Shown here: piece after piece, positions 1,018-50,073 of the stretch
How the letters are laid out: every line of letters begins with the position of its first letter
How positions within the stretch are numbered: the stretch's first letter is position 1
IMG/VR virus record: IMGVR_UViG_3300049617_000207
Coordinates: 32,015-96,014 of that record
Length of the DNA: 64,000 bases
Source: a virus
Reading direction: 5' to 3' (one strand)
The notes under the pieces: model-generated
Databases searched by the model: none
The model's input: the letters and a program-made list of their open reading frames with translations, nothing else
Told to the model about the DNA's origin: nothing
Translations under genes and position numbers: made by a program

Positions 1018-1332
1018 TTACGCGCGAGTGAGCTTGGCGATGGCCTCGGGTGCGACGACCGCAACGCCCGCGGCGACCGCGCCGACGCCGCCCGTGGCAA
1101 CCACCGGCACCGTGTTCGTTGGGATGATCGCCGCGGTCGTGCCCGGCGCAGGCGTCGGGTTGAGGAGCGTCCGCACCAGGCCCGCGACTGAAGCAAGCGC
1201 CAGGCCGACCGCGACGATAAGCGCCGCGTGGCCGGGGAGGATGATCGCCACGGCGGCGCCGACGACGCCGAGCCCGCCACCGGCGACGTAGGTCACGATT
1301 GCGAGGAGGTCGGCCGGGTGGCGCGATGTCAT
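1018..1332 (-). CDS. small membrane protein (holin-like)
   Basis: Two to three hydrophobic helices starting at MTSRHPADLL. Confidence 0.55.
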   Translation of the reverse strand: MTSRHPADLLAIVTYVAGGGLGVVGAAVAIILPGHAALIVAVGLALASVAGLVRTLLNPTPAPGTTAAIIPTNTVPVVATGGVGAVAAGVAVVAPEAIAKLTRA

Positions 1333-1676
1333 CGGTGGTACTCGGCGACGCGCGCGCGGATCGCCTGCTAGAGTTCGCGCGGAGAACGTGCTAACATCGC
1401 GGCACTCGCCGGGCTCGCCTTCGCGACGCGCAGAGACCCTCACGGGTGAGTATGCCGAGGAGGCGGGGCGTACGACCGGCGGGAGCGACTTGGCAAGAGC
1501 CGTGAAAGCATCGAGGCCCCTGCAATGTGGGATCGCCTCGGACGCTCGGACGCCGCGCTGATCGGCGGTCGCGTGAGTCAGAGTGAAGCGAGGGGACGCT
1601 CTCGCGAAAGGCCGTGCGATACGACACGGAGAGCGCGCAGCGAGGCGGGGCGGGCGCGCACAAAAGGAGGCAAGCA

Positions 1677-1907
1677 TTGGGCTACGCGCTCACGCGCGAC
1701 CGGGTCGTCGCCAAGTGTCACATCGGGGAGGGCGCGCGCTGCTGCAAGTATCTCATGGCTGCGCTGCAAGGCTTCGAGTGCGCCGCGACCAACGTCACCG
1801 AGCGCGAGAGCATCGACGCGCGTGCCGCGAGCTTCACCGCCAAGAGCGGTCCCTGCGCGGACCCGAGCGACGCCACAAGCGAGGCGCGCGCGTACGAGCC
1901 GCCTTAG
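1677..1907 (+). CDS. hypothetical Cys-rich protein
   Basis: AAGGAGG ribosome-binding site before TTG at 1677. Confidence 0.55.
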   Translation: MGYALTRDRVVAKCHIGEGARCCKYLMAALQGFECAATNVTERESIDARAASFTAKSGPCADPSDATSEARAYEPP

Positions 1908-2126
1908 CCGTTCTTCACGGCGCACGACACGCAGCCGAACGTATCACCATCGCGCACCCATCCCAGGCTACCCGCTAACCGCTTCACCGCGTCTTGCGGG
2001 TCGACGTCGTCGGGCGGATCGCGCGCGAGCGCCCCGATGAGCGCGAGCGCGCATGCCGGACATGTGAGCGGGCGCTGCGCGGGCACGTAGAGCGCGCTCA
2101 ACGGAGCGAACGTGGGCGGGCGGGCC

Positions 2127-2981: not shown

Positions 2982-3221
2982 TCATTGCACCTGCTTGACT
3001 AAGGCGTACTGTGCGAGCACCTCGAAGTGATGGGACTGCGTCTCGTGGCGCCGCAGCCACCCGAGATGCGACGCGCACGTGAAGCGCGCGCCGCACTCCT
3101 GGCAGAGCACGACGGCTACCGGATACTCGTGACACGTCGCGTAAAAGCACGCGTAGTCGACGCCGCGGTGCATCGTGACGTCGCCGGTCATACGCGTCGT
3201 CTTTTCCTCGCTCGACCTCAT
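2982..3221 (-). CDS. hypothetical zinc-finger protein
   Basis: CxxxxC, CxxC, CxxH motifs; ATGA overlap with terL. Confidence 0.55.
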   Translation of the reverse strand: MRSSEEKTTRMTGDVTMHRGVDYACFYATCHEYPVAVVLCQECGARFTCASHLGWLRRHETQSHHFEVLAQYALVKQVQ

Positions 3222-4771
3222 ACGTCAAGCATACCCCGAAAGAGCCGCACGAGTAGGTAGCGTCCGGCATCCATCGCGTGATCGTCGCTCTTGACCGGCC
3301 GCTCGTCGATATTCTTATCGTCTTTCTCGTCGGGGTGGTGGTACTTCTTTATCTCGCGGATCGTGTTGACGCACCTGCGCGCGATATACAGAATGGGCCG
3401 CCTGCGTCCCATTGGCTTGAGCGCCCACCGCACGACCGAGATACCGCCGACCACGTTGGGGAGGTTATTGATGAGCGCATGCTTATTCGCGGGCTCCGTC
3501 TGCACGCCGAGCGCCGCGAGCGTGGCCGCGTCACCGGCGTCGTGATCGGCCACGCGCCACGCCGTGTTCGTGAACCAGGGCTCGGCGATGATCGAGCGGG
3601 CGAAGACGTCGGCCGTGCGGCCCGAGGCGTAGTCCTCGGCAAAGATGATGACGTCGTCGCTCGGGGTCGGCTGCGCGTAGAGCGCGACGCACGGATTCGT
3701 GTAGCCGAAGTCGATGCCCGAGACCACGGGGAAGGCCGGGTTGTAGTCGTAGTCGACGACGTGGAGCTTCTCGTCGAACATCGGATAGGCGAGGCCCTTC
3801 GTGTCGGGCCGCAGCGAGAGCCATTGCGAATTCCACACGGACTCGTCCATGCGGAGATACTTGTGAATGACGTCGTCAATGGGCATCCACCCGTGCGAGC
3901 GCGACGCGCGGCCGGGGCCGGGCACGTAATGCTCGACGCCGTTCACGTCGGTCGTTTTCGCGCGGCACGTGGCTTCAAGTTGGCATGATCCGCAACCCGT
4001 GGGCGCGCCGTCCTGGTGACGCTCCGGCGGGCAGTTCTCAATAATTTCCCACACGCACCAAAAGTAGCGGCGCAAGTCACTCGCTTCTTCGAGTAACTGC
4101 TCCATCGGGCCGTACGCCTTCTTGCGGCTCGACGTGTAGATCGTCGCGGGCGGGTTGCCATTCGTGCGCACCGGCATGCTCAGACCTTCTTGAATTATCG
4201 TCCAGGATGTTAGCTCGATTTCGTCCCAATGCGCGCGCTCGGGATGCGGCGAGTTCACGCGGTTCATCGTTGCGGGCATAATCTCGACTTCACCGCCGTT
4301 GCGTAGCGTCGTCTTCGAGATGAGCGACTCGCCCCGCACATCGTTACGGAATTCCGGCAGCGCAAGAAAGCCCGTGATGTATTTGTAGCACTTCTTCGCC
4401 TGCTCTTCGATGGCGCCGATGTTGGCGATGGTCGTGCCGAAGTGCTTCATCATGAGATGATCGAGCAGCGCGAATTGCACGGTTTTGCCGCCCGTTCGCG
4501 GGCCAACCCATATCGCATCGAGCACGACGCGAAAGAACGCATCGGCCAGCGCATCGAACGGGGAGCAATGCCCGTCGCACACGGCCACGCGTGGGATCGT
4601 GTAGCCGTAGTGCTCTTGGATGTAGAGGTGCAGGTCGTCGCGGTCCTGCGGCGGGAGCGCGGCGGAGAGGACCGCGTACGATTCGGCAAGGGCTTTGACG
4701 TATTCGATTTCGTCATCCGTGACCACCAGGGCGGCTCCTTTTACGGTTCGAGTTCGTCCGCGTTGACCCAC
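3218..4771 (-). CDS. terL: terminase large subunit
   Basis: Walker A GPRTGGKT, Walker B WDEIE, nuclease motifs GIDFGYTNP and DDHAMDAGRY; start uncertain. Confidence 0.92.
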   Translation of the reverse strand: MGQRGRTRTVKGAALVVTDDEIEYVKALAESYAVLSAALPPQDRDDLHLYIQEHYGYTIPRVAVCDGHCSPFDALADAFFRVVLDAIWVGPRTGGKTVQFALLDHLMMKHFGTTIANIGAIEEQAKKCYKYITGFLALPEFRNDVRGESLISKTTLRNGGEVEIMPATMNRVNSPHPERAHWDEIELTSWTIIQEGLSMPVRTNGNPPATIYTSSRKKAYGPMEQLLEEASDLRRYFWCVWEIIENCPPERHQDGAPTGCGSCQLEATCRAKTTDVNGVEHYVPGPGRASRSHGWMPIDDVIHKYLRMDESVWNSQWLSLRPDTKGLAYPMFDEKLHVVDYDYNPAFPVVSGIDFGYTNPCVALYAQPTPSDDVIIFAEDYASGRTADVFARSIIAEPWFTNTAWRVADHDAGDAATLAALGVQTEPANKHALINNLPNVVGGISVVRWALKPMGRRRPILYIARRCVNTIREIKKYHHPDEKDDKNIDERPVKSDDHAMDAGRYLLVRLFRGMLDV

Positions 4772-20267: not shown

Positions 20268-20303
20268 GGAAAAGAAGAAGAGGCGATGGTGAGTCGCCTC
20301 TTC
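20268..20303 (-). terminator. intrinsic terminator
   Basis: GAAGAGGCGA/TCGCCTCTTC stem followed by TTCTTTT on the minus strand. Confidence 0.65.
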
Positions 20304-20483
20304 GGGGGTGGGATCGGGCCGCCTGGCCCGGTTAGAAGACGTCGGTGTCGAGCGCCCGGCGCGCGTCCGCGTAGGCCGCGAACGCGACCTCGGCGCCGCG
20401 CGCCTCGCGGCAGAATCGCTCGCCGCTCTTGGGATCGTAGGCGTGGCCGCAAGCCGGGAAGGTCGGGCACTCGTACGCGTACC

Positions 20484-20508
20484 ATGATACGCCCTGCGCG
20501 CTGGAAAG

Positions 20509-20525
<17 letters not shown>
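20484..20525 (-). promoter_or_regulatory. repeated promoter copy 5
   Basis: GTGCCCC-N6-TTGACT-N17-TATCAT. Confidence 0.85.
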
Positions 20526-21222
<697 letters not shown>

Positions 21223-21226
<4 letters not shown>

Positions 21227-21438
21227 GGCGCCCGCTTGAGGTAGTCGAAGACGCCTTGCCGGGCGAGGTCGCTGTAGCGTTGCGTGCCGAACATCGGCCG
21301 CCCGCACGCCGAGCACGCGTACCATCCGACGTGCTCCGGCGCCCCCGGCCGCAGGAGCGTGAAGCCAAGCGGCGCCTCATCGACACGCGCCACCGGCAGC
21401 ACGTGGCGCCCGAAGAGACAACGCACGGCCTGCAGCAC
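21223..21438 (-). CDS. hypothetical zinc-finger microprotein
   Basis: CLFGRH...CSACG; coupled at both ends. Confidence 0.55.
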
Positions 21439-21701
21439 TACGGGTCCTCCTCGCTGCGGAACGCGCGGTCGGCGCCGTCCTCATCGTCGGGGTCGACGGG
21501 CTCGATCCCGTAGCCGACGATAGTGCCGCGCGTGGCGTGCTGCGGGATCATCCGCTTGAGCTTGGCCTCGGCCTCCGTGAACGGCATCTCCGTCGAGAGC
21601 ACCGCTGCAACGCGGACCTGCGCGCCTTGGAGGTCGTCGCCGCGGCCGAGATAGACGACGAAGAGCCGGTAGAGGTGCGTCGTCTCGTCGGGCGCGCTCA
21701 C
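21438..21701 (-). CDS. hypothetical protein
   Basis: GTG start overlaps the TGA of the displaced gene end. Confidence 0.6.
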   Translation of the reverse strand: MSAPDETTHLYRLFVVYLGRGDDLQGAQVRVAAVLSTEMPFTEAEAKLKRMIPQHATRGTIVGYGIEPVDPDDEDGADRAFRSEEDP

Positions 21702-21790
21702 TTACGCACCGGCCGCGGCGCGCCTGGCGCATAGCCCCCGGCGAGCACCTCGCGCAGTTGCGCGATAGCCGTGGCGCCCGTGATGTGCTT
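21698..21790 (-). pseudogene. displaced original 3' end of the 23056-23340 gene; its 5' part is the predicted TnpB guide
   Basis: Translates KHITGATAIAQLREVLAGGYAPGAPRPVRK*, versus EHISGSVAISQLRDVLSGGYAPGAPRPRR* at 23056-23145. Confidence 0.9.
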
Positions 21791-21900
21791 TCGATGTGTG
21801 CGTCCTTTAGGCAGCATTTTCACGCCTCCCGAGCCGGGTGCCCCCCGGCGATAACTCACTTAAAAGCGCCAACTGCGCTCGCCCTAGGATATTCCGCGCG
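21770..21900 (-). ncRNA. predicted TnpB omegaRNA (reRNA) scaffold plus guide; boundaries approximate
   Basis: Overlaps the tnpB 3' end as established for TnpB; stems AGCGC/GCGCT, GCCGGG/CCCGGC, GGCGT-GAAA-ATGCT, GTGAGTT/GACGCAC. Confidence 0.65.
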
Positions 21901-23030
21901 GCGTTCACGTCGGCGTGGTCGCGATGACCACACGCTACGCAAACGAACCGCACGCCATCCCGATTCTCCGGCGCGACGTGCGCGCACTCGGCGCACGTCC
22001 GCGACGTATTCCTTGGATTCACGCTAACGACTACGCGAGCGGCACATGCTGCCTTCTCGCGGATTAACGTGACCAATGTTCCCCATGCAACATCCCCGAT
22101 GCTACGATTAAGGCTCGACTTCGCCGCGACGTTCGTGCCCGGCTTCTCGACTGTACCTCTCGCCGACCGCATCATGTTTCGCACGGTGAGAGCTTCGACC
22201 GCGATGCCGTCATACGCGTTCACGATCCGGCGCGAAAGTTTATGCAGCGCGTCACGTCGTGCGTTCGCCTCGCGCTCCCGAGCCCGCGCCAATCGTCCTA
22301 CCGCCGCCGCCCGCGCCGGGTCCTTCCAATTCACACAACGGCCCAGGCTGTCCGTTGCGGTACGCTTGGCGACAACGCGCGAGGCGACCGCCACGCGCTC
22401 CGCTCGCTTGGCGAGATGACGCGGATTCGTGACAAGTTCCCCGTCCGAAGTGGCGGCCAACACGGTCACGCCAACGTCAAGTCCGACGACGGCGCCGGTG
22501 CGCGGGAGCGGCTCAACCTCGCGGTTGCACTCGAATATCGCGTGCCAACGCCCATTCTTCTCGACCACGAAGGCACGACCGAACGCGGGAATGGGCCGCC
22601 CCTTCCGCATGGTGATCGTGCCAACGCCGGGGACTCGCACTTTCGTCTGCGCCGCGTTGAATTGGAAGTAGCGGTCGCCGTGCGAAACCTCGATTTGATT
22701 CCAGCGTGAGGCTGCACGATAGCGCGGGAACCCACGCCCCTTGCCTTCCTTAACCCGGCGGAAGAACGCCGCGAAGGCGAGGTCGAGCCGGTGGAGAACC
22801 GCGTCCTGGCACTCCCGATGAATCGCCTTTACGCCAGGATCGTCGGCCCGTAACGCGGTCAACTCTGCAGACTGCATCTTTACGGACACCGTAACGCGGC
22901 GCATCCGGTACGCGTCTTTTCGCTCTTGCAGCGCCGCGTTGTAAAGATTCCTAGTGGCGTGCAGGACGTGCCAAAGTCTTCGCTCCTGTGAAGCGGACGG
23001 GTATAAGCGAACCTTGTGCATCCAGCGCAT
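21807..23030 (-). CDS. tnpB: RNA-guided endonuclease TnpB (IS200/IS605 family), 407 aa
   Basis: N-terminal KVRLYP...YNAAL; RuvC-I GLDVG, RuvC-II AVEAL, Zn finger CAEC/CVAC, RuvC-III HADVNAARNI; D-E-D triad intact. Confidence 0.96.
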   Translation of the reverse strand: MRWMHKVRLYPSASQERRLWHVLHATRNLYNAALQERKDAYRMRRVTVSVKMQSAELTALRADDPGVKAIHRECQDAVLHRLDLAFAAFFRRVKEGKGRGFPRYRAASRWNQIEVSHGDRYFQFNAAQTKVRVPGVGTITMRKGRPIPAFGRAFVVEKNGRWHAIFECNREVEPLPRTGAVVGLDVGVTVLAATSDGELVTNPRHLAKRAERVAVASRVVAKRTATDSLGRCVNWKDPARAAAVGRLARAREREANARRDALHKLSRRIVNAYDGIAVEALTVRNMMRSARGTVEKPGTNVAAKSSLNRSIGDVAWGTLVTLIREKAACAARVVVSVNPRNTSRTCAECAHVAPENRDGVRFVCVACGHRDHADVNAARNILGRAQLALLSELSPGGTRLGRRENAA

Positions 23031-23044
23031 ATTCTCTACCACTA

Positions 23045-23053
23045 AGTATAACA
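23045..23053 (-). promoter_or_regulatory. extended -10 promoter of tnpB
   Basis: TGTTATACT, 14 nt upstream of the ATG. Confidence 0.55.
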
Positions 23054-23055
23054 CA

Positions 23056-23340
23056 CTAGCGTCGCGGGCGGGGGGCGCCAGGTGCGTAGCCGCCCGACAG
23101 GACATCTCGTAACTGCGAGATGGCGACCGAGCCGGAAATGTGCTCGGGCATCCGCTGCCAATGCGTCACGAGGAGCTTCGCCTGCTCGACGATCCGCGCG
23201 TCGGCCTGCGAGAAGAGCATCGTGTCGAGCCCGGCGAGGATCGCCCCGCGAAGCTCCGGCTGCTGAATCCGCTCCGCGACCGTGCGCGCCGTAGCAATCG
23301 CCTGCTGCGCCGGGGTCGGCTCGACCGTCATCTTACTCAT
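23056..23340 (-). CDS. hypothetical 94-aa protein with an element-supplied recoded C-terminus
   Basis: Intact ORF; the last ~28 codons include TTA, CGA, ATT, GCA and CCT, unlike the rest of the gene. Confidence 0.8.
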   Translation of the reverse strand: MSKMTVEPTPAQQAIATARTVAERIQQPELRGAILAGLDTMLFSQADARIVEQAKLLVTHWQRMPEHISGSVAISQLRDVLSGGYAPGAPRPRR

Positions 23341-23381
23341 GGGCGCCGCTTCGCGTCTCGCGTACGCCGTCCCTACGGCCA

Positions 23382-23425
23382 GGGCACCCCGTTACGTTGT
23401 TTTTCGCGCGACGGCGTGGTATGCT
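23382..23425 (+). promoter_or_regulatory. promoter-family variant upstream of ssb
   Basis: GGGCACCC box, TTGTTT-N17(CGCGCG)-TATGCT. Confidence 0.6.
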
Positions 23426-23451
23426 AGAGGCCACCAAGGAGGGCAAGTCTG

Positions 23452-23883
23452 TTGCCTAGTTTCAACCACATAACGCTCGTGGGCAATCTCACGCGCGACC
23501 CCGAGATTCGCTACGTCGACGGCGGCGGCAAAGCCGTTACCAAGTTTTCGCTTGCCATAAATCGCAAGACCAAGGGCGCCGACGAAACCATGTTTATCGA
23601 CATCGTCGCATGGGATCGCCTGGGCGAAGTCTGCAATCAGTATCTCAAGAAGGGCGACCCCGCGCTCATCTCTGGACGCCTCGCCATTCGCAAGTACGAC
23701 GACAAGGATGGCAATAAACGCACGGCCGTCGAGGTCGTCGCAAGCGACATGCAGATGCTCGGAACCAAACGCGATGCCGCGGCACCGGCACCGGCACGTA
23801 GCGGCGCAGGCGGCGGATACGCACCGGCGAGCGGCGGCCGCACGGAAGAGGAAGAGGATGCTTTCGACGACATTCCCTTCTAG
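23452..23883 (+). CDS. ssb: single-stranded DNA-binding protein
   Basis: NHITLVGNLTRDPEIRY, YLKKG, acidic tail DDIPF. Confidence 0.96.
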   Translation: MPSFNHITLVGNLTRDPEIRYVDGGGKAVTKFSLAINRKTKGADETMFIDIVAWDRLGEVCNQYLKKGDPALISGRLAIRKYDDKDGNKRTAVEVVASDMQMLGTKRDAAAPAPARSGAGGGYAPASGGRTEEEEDAFDDIPF

Positions 23884-48970: not shown

Positions 48971-50073
48971 CCGAGAACGATAACCCGGTACGTGTTCGAT
49001 GCGGGCGCCGACGCAAACGACACCGACACCGTATTCAGGGACACGGCGAGGTTATCGGTAATCACCTGCTCGCCCGTGGAGATGAGCCGAATGGAGACGA
49101 GCACGTCGAGCGTGCCGAGGTTGTGCGTGATCGTGTACGTGAGGGTCGAGCCGTCGCCAATGGTCGTCGCGTATTTACGCGCGACAACCGTCGTATCGAC
49201 TTGTAGGCCACCCGTGCCCGCAAGGACGCCACCGGCCGCAACCACTTCGGTTGAGACGACGGAGCCGACTTTCTGTAACCCGTTGCCAAACGTCAGATTC
49301 GCGCTGCCGTTGAATTGGTTTATCGCGACGGAGGTCGTCCCCGGCGTGATCGCACCGGAGGTCGGACTCGCGAGGATAAACTGCGACCCGCCGTACGCGG
49401 CGCCTTGCTCGACGTACCACAACGCCCCGAGCGTGAGTTCGTTGTTCGGGCTTGCATCGCCGCCGGGCCGCGCCCACGCGCCGGAGGAGACGAGCCACGG
49501 CCCATTCTGTGAGGTGGTCGTCTGCGCGGTGAGCAGCACGCGAGAGCCCGCCGGCAGCGCCACGCCGTCGATAGTCGGCAAGCCCGAGAGCGCCTGATTC
49601 GCAACCGACACGGCGGCCACCGGCGGCTTCGACTCGATTCCGGCCGCCGCGGCCTGCACGCTGTTGTCGACATAGTTTTTCGTGGCGCCGTCCTGCGGGT
49701 TCACCGGATCGGCGAGGCCCGTGATGTTCTTGGCGGCGAACGGCACGTTTGCCGTCGGCGCCGCGAACGCGCTAAGTGGATACGCCTGCACGACGGCCGC
49801 GAGGTCGGAGATGGTCGACGATGGTTGCGTGCCCGTCTGATTCGCGCGCGCAAGCGGGTTGACCGCAAGGGCGCTGATCGGGATGCCCGACGCCTGGGTC
49901 GCGTCGAAGGGAAGCCACGCCGAGCCGCTCCATTGCAGCGCGGTTTTGAGCGTCGAGTTGTAGTAGACTTGGCCGGGGAGCGGCGTGCCCGGCGGCGCAG
50001 AGAGCACTTGAAAGAGCGCGTTGAGTAACTGATTTTGCTTCAGGTCGATGTTGTCGCCGTAGGCTACTGCCAT
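48967..50073 (-). CDS. virion/tail fibre protein
   Basis: DPVNPQDGATKNYVD, TIDGV..RVLL..Q...QNG, ITHNLGT. Confidence 0.75.
   Translation of the reverse strand: MAVAYGDNIDLKQNQLLNALFQVLSAPPGTPLPGQVYYNSTLKTALQWSGSAWLPFDATQASGIPISALAVNPLARANQTGTQPSSTISDLAAVVQAYPLSAFAAPTANVPFAAKNITGLADPVNPQDGATKNYVDNSVQAAAAGIESKPPVAAVSVANQALSGLPTIDGVALPAGSRVLLTAQTTTSQNGPWLVSSGAWARPGGDASPNNELTLGALWYVEQGAAYGGSQFILASPTSGAITPGTTSVAINQFNGSANLTFGNGLQKVGSVVSTEVVAAGGVLAGTGGLQVDTTVVARKYATTIGDGSTLTYTITHNLGTLDVLVSIRLISTGEQVITDNLAVSLNTVSVSFASAPASNTYRVIVLG

Follow-up and report, generated by a model that had tools for sequence, protein, structure and literature searches.

How a transposon-derived nuclease gene can lie inside a small phage gene without destroying it, and why the end of that gene is present twice, are the questions raised by a locus in the IMG/VR virus record IMGVR_UViG_3300049617_000207. 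The window analyzed here is a stretch of 64,000 nucleotides, bases 32015–96014 of this complete 96,014-bp record with direct terminal repeats. On the minus strand, the locus consists of the gene X, a 25-nt spacer, the nuclease gene tnpB, an RNA scaffold overlapping the tnpB end, a second copy of the X tail, and the gene Y, whose GTG start codon overlaps the TGA of the second tail copy. A preliminary description of the same DNA had interpreted the arrangement as a possible natural gene drive, in which a TnpB cassette supplies its target gene with a recoded end and would use the displaced original end as its guide. We propose that the locus probably follows a known homing design in a new, RNA-guided version. 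To the more specific claim that it is a functional homing and rescue element, the RNA-guided counterpart of the mORF homing elements of mitochondria, we give an even chance on the grounds of its sequence.

The two ends of gene X

In a flank-against-flank protein search, the two tails match each other with an E-value of about 1e-13. A recount reproduced the layout given in the preliminary description, with a duplicated tail after tnpB and its scaffold and 21 of 29 residues identical. The identical residues are specified by different codons in 15 cases and by the same codon in six. At the nucleotide level, 30 of the 86 aligned positions differ, which corrects the earlier figure of 31 of 87. The longest run common to both tails is, as stated then, the 7-nt AGCACAT, found at 23144–23138 and 21789–21783. 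The fragment whose removal restores the gene had been given as 21790–23137, but this interval is off by the 7-nt repeat. The clean deletion comprises 1355 nt (21790–23144 or 21783–23137) and leads to an in-frame protein of 95 aa.

X has few relatives, and none of X or Y was found in IMG/VR, in the cultured-phage collection or in the JGI metagenomes. One of the relatives, P0002, is an uninterrupted 95-aa protein encoded on a 590-bp NCBI/ENA contig. Its identity to the body of X is 91%, and the protein reconstructed by the clean deletion agrees with P0002 at 89 of 95 positions (94%). P0002 indicates that an uninterrupted X allele exists in nature. The preliminary description had suggested a search for such an allele, and the relative found, at the protein level, carries the tail of the downstream copy, in which 29 of 29 residues are the same; the native tail is thus undecayed at this level. 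The foreign tail agrees with the native one at 21 of 29 residues. Since P0002 carries exactly the downstream tail, and since the GTGA overlap with Y is also kept there, the downstream copy is regarded as the resident end of X, in line with the first interpretation.

The upstream copy, in turn, is a naturally diverged, distantly related allele of the tail, brought in from elsewhere. The proportion of differences between the two tails is 0.82 at synonymous sites (pS), which are saturated, and 0.16 at nonsynonymous sites (pN). The mismatches are spread evenly, with 8 in the 20 nt of the predicted guide region and 22 in the 66 nt beyond it. The foreign tail keeps every residue that is invariant in the tails of the family, and its residues S71 and S75 are found in other natural family members. 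Because the mismatches are even, the synonymous sites saturated and the substitutions present in natural members, the upstream copy is considered to be natural and not recoded in place. The term recoded used in the preliminary description does not fit these data. Recoding in place under selection for escape from the guide was rejected as an explanation, as the mismatches are not enriched in the guide region. Six identical codons were observed between the tails where 9.4 are expected at saturation, a deviation that is not significant (P = 0.07). Compared with P0002, the foreign tail differs at 8 of 29 residues and the body of X at 6 of 66 (Fisher P = 0.03). The preliminary description had also pointed to atypical codons in the upstream copy, and this argument proved weak: the GC content of the copy at third codon positions (GC3) is 0.75, similar to tnpB (0.72) and lower than in the X body (0.91) and Y (0.93), yet 19% of the 28-codon windows in the genes of this phage have a GC3 as low.

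A model of X built from six family members is a predicted four-helix bundle with a pLDDT (predicted local distance difference test) score of 84, in which the tail is helix 4. According to this model, the tail is structurally needed, as it forms the fourth helix of the bundle. The foreign tail is fused in frame to the X body, and X therefore still encodes this helix. No function could be assigned to X from Pfam, PHROGs, the ESM Atlas or Foldseek-BFVD. Within this small family, the strongest conservation is found in one motif (MPEHITG; W-x-x-M-P-E-H-I/L-T-G). Both the insertion point, between codons 65 and 66, and the predicted target fall into it. Homing endonucleases are typically found at conserved places of this kind.

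The nuclease, its ends and its predicted guide

The product of tnpB matches the Pfam families HTH_OrfB_IS605, OrfB_IS605 and Cas12f1-like_TNB (PF12323, PF01385, PF07282), and its residues 6–388 align with the ISDra2 TnpB structures 8BF8, 8EXA and 8H1J (E 1.9e-27). The RuvC triad, which had been reported as intact, was confirmed as D185, E279 and D374, and both CxxC pairs of the zinc finger are present. Judged by these residues, TnpB is catalytically intact. A nuclease-dead regulator of the TldR type was rejected on account of the intact triad. The TnpB family is very large, with 774 clusters at E <= 1e-60. Identity to the nearest clusters besides its own is 74–77%, the closest relative being that of the element L100 (77%), and one related cluster of 58% identity is labelled Candidatus Eremiobacteraeota bacterium.

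The 5′ boundary of the unit differs from that of its relatives. In L100 and in elements of the L049 type, about 165 nt in front of the start codon are conserved as the left end, against about 25–30 nt in the window. The outer left end of these elements, about 140 nt with a subterminal hairpin, is absent, and the foreign tail stands in its place. The possibility that this tail is simply a piece of the left end with a fortuitous reading frame was rejected, because it shows no similarity to the left ends of the relatives, its alignment score being equal to the mean of shuffles. A Y1 transposase gene, tnpA, had been described as missing, and this holds for the complete 96-kb genome: the profile PF01797 matches nothing in it, while control genomes do match. 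With both the outer left end and tnpA missing, the cassette is therefore no transposon now and could be moved only by recombination. As for the relatives themselves, L100 (Ga0209839_10025578, 837–1080) is a full-ended element about 31 codons into a beta-carbonic-anhydrase-like bacterial gene, without a spare end. The left end of L049 provides the final codons and the stop codon of a gene for an ABC (ATP-binding cassette)-transporter binding protein.

To place the right end, related elements were drawn from genomes and metagenomes. Five independent insertions of 59–61% identical relatives all end in ...CACTACGAA and are followed by unrelated DNA. The right end in the window reads ...CACATCGAA, followed by AGCACATCACGG... 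The boundary ...CGAA shared by the relatives therefore puts the right end at 21790 and the guide template at 21789–21770, directly after the scaffold, where the preliminary description had also placed it. The boundary is uncertain by 2 nt, because the flanks of three of the five relatives also begin with AG. The scaffold has a consensus fold common to the window and the relatives, with five base pairs changed on both sides, and it matches no Rfam family. The omegaRNA is predicted to carry 21789–21770 as its guide.

In its 5′ flank, the hybrid gene is the same as the empty allele, but it matches the guide over the first 7 guide positions only. It differs from the guide at positions 8, 9, 11, 15 and 17–20; the eight mismatches in 20 nt counted previously are thus correct and start at position 8. 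No other guide site was found in the genome at up to three mismatches. At 49717–49730 on the minus strand, 14 nt agree with the beginning of the guide except for one mismatch. The full 20 nt differ there at more than three positions, and a reversed-pattern control shows that such a match is at chance level.

Proposed homing and rescue, and the competing explanations

The cycle that we propose starts from the observed arrangement. A TnpB/omegaRNA unit derived from an IS200/IS605-type element lies inside the phage gene X, between codons 65 and 66, and the native final 29 codons have been displaced to just 3′ of the right end, the place from which this family copies its guide. The TnpB–omegaRNA complex would be directed against related phages in which X is uninterrupted. 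With its eight mismatches to the 20-nt guide, which begin at position 8, the hybrid gene of the carrier should avoid being cut. When both phages infect one cell, the carrier would provide the template for repair of the cut allele, with the body of X serving as the left homology arm and the native tail together with Y as the right arm. The repair would copy the spare tail, tnpB and the omegaRNA as one block, and the same cut would also handicap the rival phage. For this cycle, we infer that the empty allele has a suitable target-adjacent motif (TAM) and is cut, that the hybrid gene escapes, and that repair copies the block. The mosaic of P0002-like flanks with a far more diverged spare tail between them seems to match what one such transfer would leave.

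The preliminary description had suggested looking for the same design among TnpB homologues. The flank-against-flank protein test was applied to about 260 related TnpB loci in four sets: 66 genome loci, 52 metagenome and same-MAG (metagenome-assembled genome) loci, 84 IMG/VR loci, and 71 IMG/VR loci around the family of the locus L208, the last two sets overlapping in part. DNA repeats and low-complexity noise aside, L208 is the single further case; apart from it, no related locus has a comparable match confined to one reading frame. L208 lies on a 137-kb IMG/VR contig of a different phage (IMGVR_UViG_3300037421_000080, 1214–3249), and its TnpB is 32% identical to that of the window. On the strand opposite to tnpB, there is an intact gene (1948..1214) for a SAM (S-adenosylmethionine)-methyltransferase, whose replacement start of 38 codons is located on the side of the left end, at a distance of 52 nt from the tnpB start. 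The native 38-codon start (3249..3139) is 55% identical to the replacement, stands directly after the right end and overlaps the stop codon of an upstream glycosyltransferase gene. The match is confined to one frame, with E-values from 1e-14 to 4e-16. The right end of L208 reads ...TCAC, as in six relatives, the left-end hairpin of the relatives is absent, and the 7-nt repeat CTCGAAG occurs at both junctions. By its sequence, L208 is an independent occurrence of the same design in mirror image, with the start of a gene replaced instead of its end. No empty allele of L208 was found. The two loci raise the broader idea that phages harbour a natural class of RNA-guided "home-and-rescue" elements, in which the TnpB left end has been swapped for a resistant spare gene end, and of which the window and L208 would be independent members. 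We advance this idea tentatively, at somewhat less than even confidence.

Several points weigh against a homing and rescue element. The layout is rare, with one further case in about 150 viral loci and none in about 118 mostly bacterial ones. The 90%-identity cluster of this TnpB occurs on a single contig, and no second genome with the cassette was found in IMG/VR, the JGI metagenomes, the phage collection or the protein clusters. P0002 matches at the protein level only (86% identity), so that synonymous mismatches in the 20-nt target are possible. The 5′ flanks of the left ends of four relatives (TCAG, CTAT, CATG and GGAG) give no clear consensus for a TAM to compare with CCCG(AG). Codon usage was rejected as proof that the spare tail travels with tnpB, as the difference is not significant genome-wide. 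Finally, the proposed cycle leaves the origin of the first cassette unexplained and requires an illegitimate junction inside the left end.

The last point leads to the strongest competing explanation, a one-off scar, which we consider unlikely but serious. A host insertion of the IS605 type would have truncated X, and illegitimate recombination with a diverged co-infecting phage would have rescued X and stranded the element. TnpB might still be made, but the layout would be a repair accident that does not spread as a unit. A single known carrier genome, the rarity of the layout and a junction within the left end that must have been illegitimate all agree with this account. The relatives of this TnpB belong to ordinary full-ended bacterial insertion sequences, some of which lie in genes, such as L100 in its carbonic-anhydrase-like gene, and a second, unrepaired mini-element is present in another gene of the same phage. 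L208, however, independently repeats the loss of the hairpin, the diverged gene end on the left side, the native end at an intact right end and the 7-nt junction repeats. In addition, neither TnpB and the scaffold nor, at the protein level, the native tail shows decay, and homing elements typically choose a site like this one, in the motif that the family conserves best. A scar is also compatible with a homing element, since it could be the birth of one, and rescue by illegitimate recombination on a single occasion is the simplest origin for such an element.

Another explanation, which appears improbable, is that the cassette is kept mainly as a weapon between phages, because TnpB destroys or delays co-infecting relatives with an uninterrupted X, the copying being incidental. 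The predicted guide would match such relatives and not the carrier, and the nuclease may be expressed together with X and Y, no terminator-like site being present. Competition between phages by means of a nuclease has a precedent in the intron endonuclease of PhiPA3 (PMC11620839; review PMC13565253). A weapon is inseparable from homing by sequence alone, because the same cut does both. For a weapon, an intact frame in the native tail would be unnecessary, though the guide requires just about 20 nt of it. An artefact, in which a chimeric assembly joined two strain variants, is conceivable for a metagenome-assembled virus but extremely unlikely here, given that the two copies share no more than 7 consecutive nt, far under any assembler word length, that the contig is complete with direct terminal repeats, that X, tnpB and Y all have unbroken reading frames, and that the independent contig of L208 has the same design.

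The closest parallel to the proposed homing and rescue element is offered by the mORFs. These are genes for LAGLIDADG or GIY-YIG endonucleases found in fungal mitochondrial atp6, atp9, cox2 and nad3, for example in Allomyces macrogynus atp6 and in Glomus sp., which bring a foreign C-terminal gene end with them (PMC3630166). Their duplicated ends are 64–81% identical at the nucleotide level, and the native copy is nearly identical to that of a sister species (PMC3630166). Similar to the mORFs, the locus has a nuclease gene inside a gene, with a foreign, diverged end (here about 65% identical in nucleotides) fused in frame and the native end downstream. The native remnant is again nearer to the sister, here P0002 and at the protein level (29 of 29 residues), than to the inserted copy (21 of 29). 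In the mORFs, DNA is recognized by the protein and the remnant is without a role, whereas here the nuclease is the RNA-guided TnpB and the remnant is the predicted template of the guide. The host is a phage instead of an organelle, and the element is derived from a transposon. We therefore speak of a mORF-like way of working and not of membership in that family. The design thus has a precedent, as the mORFs do the same thing (PMC3630166). A paper describing a TnpB unit with a spare gene end was not found, although absence from the literature searched is not proof.

TnpB retains its transposon by cutting the vacated site, a process known as peel-and-paste (10.1101/2023.03.14.532601). With the TnpB proteins of IS200/IS605 elements, such as that of ISDra2 (PMC8612924, PMC10097598), the protein studied here shares the fold, the catalytic residues, a scaffold overlapping the 3′ end of tnpB, the (here predicted) guide from the right-end flank and the element-free site as the target. 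Unlike these elements, the cassette has no tnpA, misses the outer left end with its hairpin and carries coding sequence of its host gene. The proposed target is the allele of another genome and not a sister copy vacated by excision. TnpB-only IStrons are transposase-less as well; they spare host genes by group I intron splicing, and homing has been proposed for them (PMC10690162). The cassette resembles them in being a transposase-less TnpB unit inside a gene that is not destroyed. In contrast to the IStrons, it is a spare end in the DNA itself that keeps the gene whole. An IStron identity was rejected, as no Rfam intron matches at E up to 1 in 20300–23600.

Spread of IS605 by TnpB homing among plasmid copies is reported to take place without TnpA (PMC11870625), and intronless homing by free-standing endonucleases such as SegF is known from phages (review PMC13565253). 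As in both of these cases, an allele lacking the element would be cut, repair would copy the element, and self would be told from non-self by substitutions near the site. The plasmid case differs in that it involves a complete insertion sequence and a non-essential site. The Seg and Mob enzymes are guided by protein and lie between genes, and the cassette lies inside one. Non-restorative TnpB homing between genomes still awaits validation, according to a 2026 review (PMC13565253). The present locus provides a clean case for testing, with no confounding transposase and a defined predicted target. It also comes with predicted natural resistant and sensitive alleles that differ at 8 of 20 guide positions.

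Engineered "home-and-rescue" and "cleave-and-rescue" drives are man-made Cas9 constructs in insects, which pair a guide that targets a needed gene with a rescue copy, resistant to cleavage, of the part that is cut. The element proposed here would be natural, based on TnpB and found in a phage. If it works as proposed, the "cut and rescue" design of the mORFs and of the engineered drives has arisen independently with RNA-guided nucleases, and a route exists from a transposon nuclease to a tool for phage homing or competition. The exchange of the left end would turn a transposon into an obligate homing element that occupies conserved sites in needed genes. During co-infection, such elements could pass from one diverged phage to another or keep such phages out, and some phage genes would be mosaics in which end and body do not share one history. 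Should TnpB not cut, the locus would still be a well-documented case of repair by recombination after insertion in a needed phage gene.

Coordinates and neighbouring features

Table 1. Features of the X–tnpB–Y locus in window coordinates
Feature	Position	Strand	Evidence or remarks
Gene X	23340..23056	-	94 aa
X body, codons 1–66, local phage type	23143..23340	-	91% identity to P0002 counterpart; GC3 0.91; helices 1–3
Foreign replacement, last 28 X codons and stop in in-frame fusion; functionally the left part of the cassette	23056..23142	-	72% aa and ~65% nt identity to native tail
Junction repeat AGCACAT, left copy	23138..23144	-	Last two nt of codon 65, codon 66 and start of codon 67
Residual inner left end with extended -10-like TGTTATACT	23031..23055	-	Aligns with final ~30 nt upstream of L100 tnpB start
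tnpB, intact, 407 aa	21807..23030	-	Pfam and ISDra2 TnpB structure matches; catalytic residues
omegaRNA scaffold and right end, overlapping tnpB 3′ end and ending ...CGAA	21790..21960	-	Right-end homology to L049, L101, L102, L111
Predicted 20-nt guide template, first 20 native nt past right end	21770..21789	-	Right-end position; start at 21789 or 21787
Displaced native X end, last 29 codons and stop, overlapping Y start	21698..21789	-	29/29 residues as in P0002 tail
Gene Y, 87 aa, proposed right homology arm	21438..21701	-	Formerly coupled to X via GTGA overlap

The product of gene Y has no match in Pfam or PHROG. No terminator-like site is present between X, tnpB and Y on the minus strand, and the nuclease may therefore be co-transcribed with X and Y. 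A 39-codon open reading frame (ORF) on the minus strand (21817–21698) begins with an ATG 8 nt upstream of the tnpB stop codon, crosses the right end, continues in the native X tail and terminates in the GTGA shared with Y. This ORF was called by a gene caller (P0007). It could hand ribosomes from tnpB to Y and so preserve the old translational coupling of X and Y. On the other side of the locus, a gene for a single-stranded DNA-binding protein (phrog_44) is located at 23452–23883 on the plus strand, divergent from X. Because of this neighbour, X may belong to a replication or early region.

Downstream of the locus, the phage contains a 260-bp mini-element of a different IS605 type (20914–21173, plus strand) within a minus-strand gene at about 21226–20509. 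Its parts are the hairpin region of a left end, the final ~50 codons of a tnpB gene, a scaffold and a right end. The mini-element is inserted after TCAC, in antisense orientation, in a nucleoside deoxyribosyltransferase-like gene (phrog_12607). Here the host gene lacks a spare end and is simply interrupted; precise excision restores ...QPMIVTVL... The same gene also shifts frame at a run of four G, at 20827–20845 on the minus strand (TTCGGGGTGG). This frame change reflects either a pseudogene or a homopolymer sequencing error.

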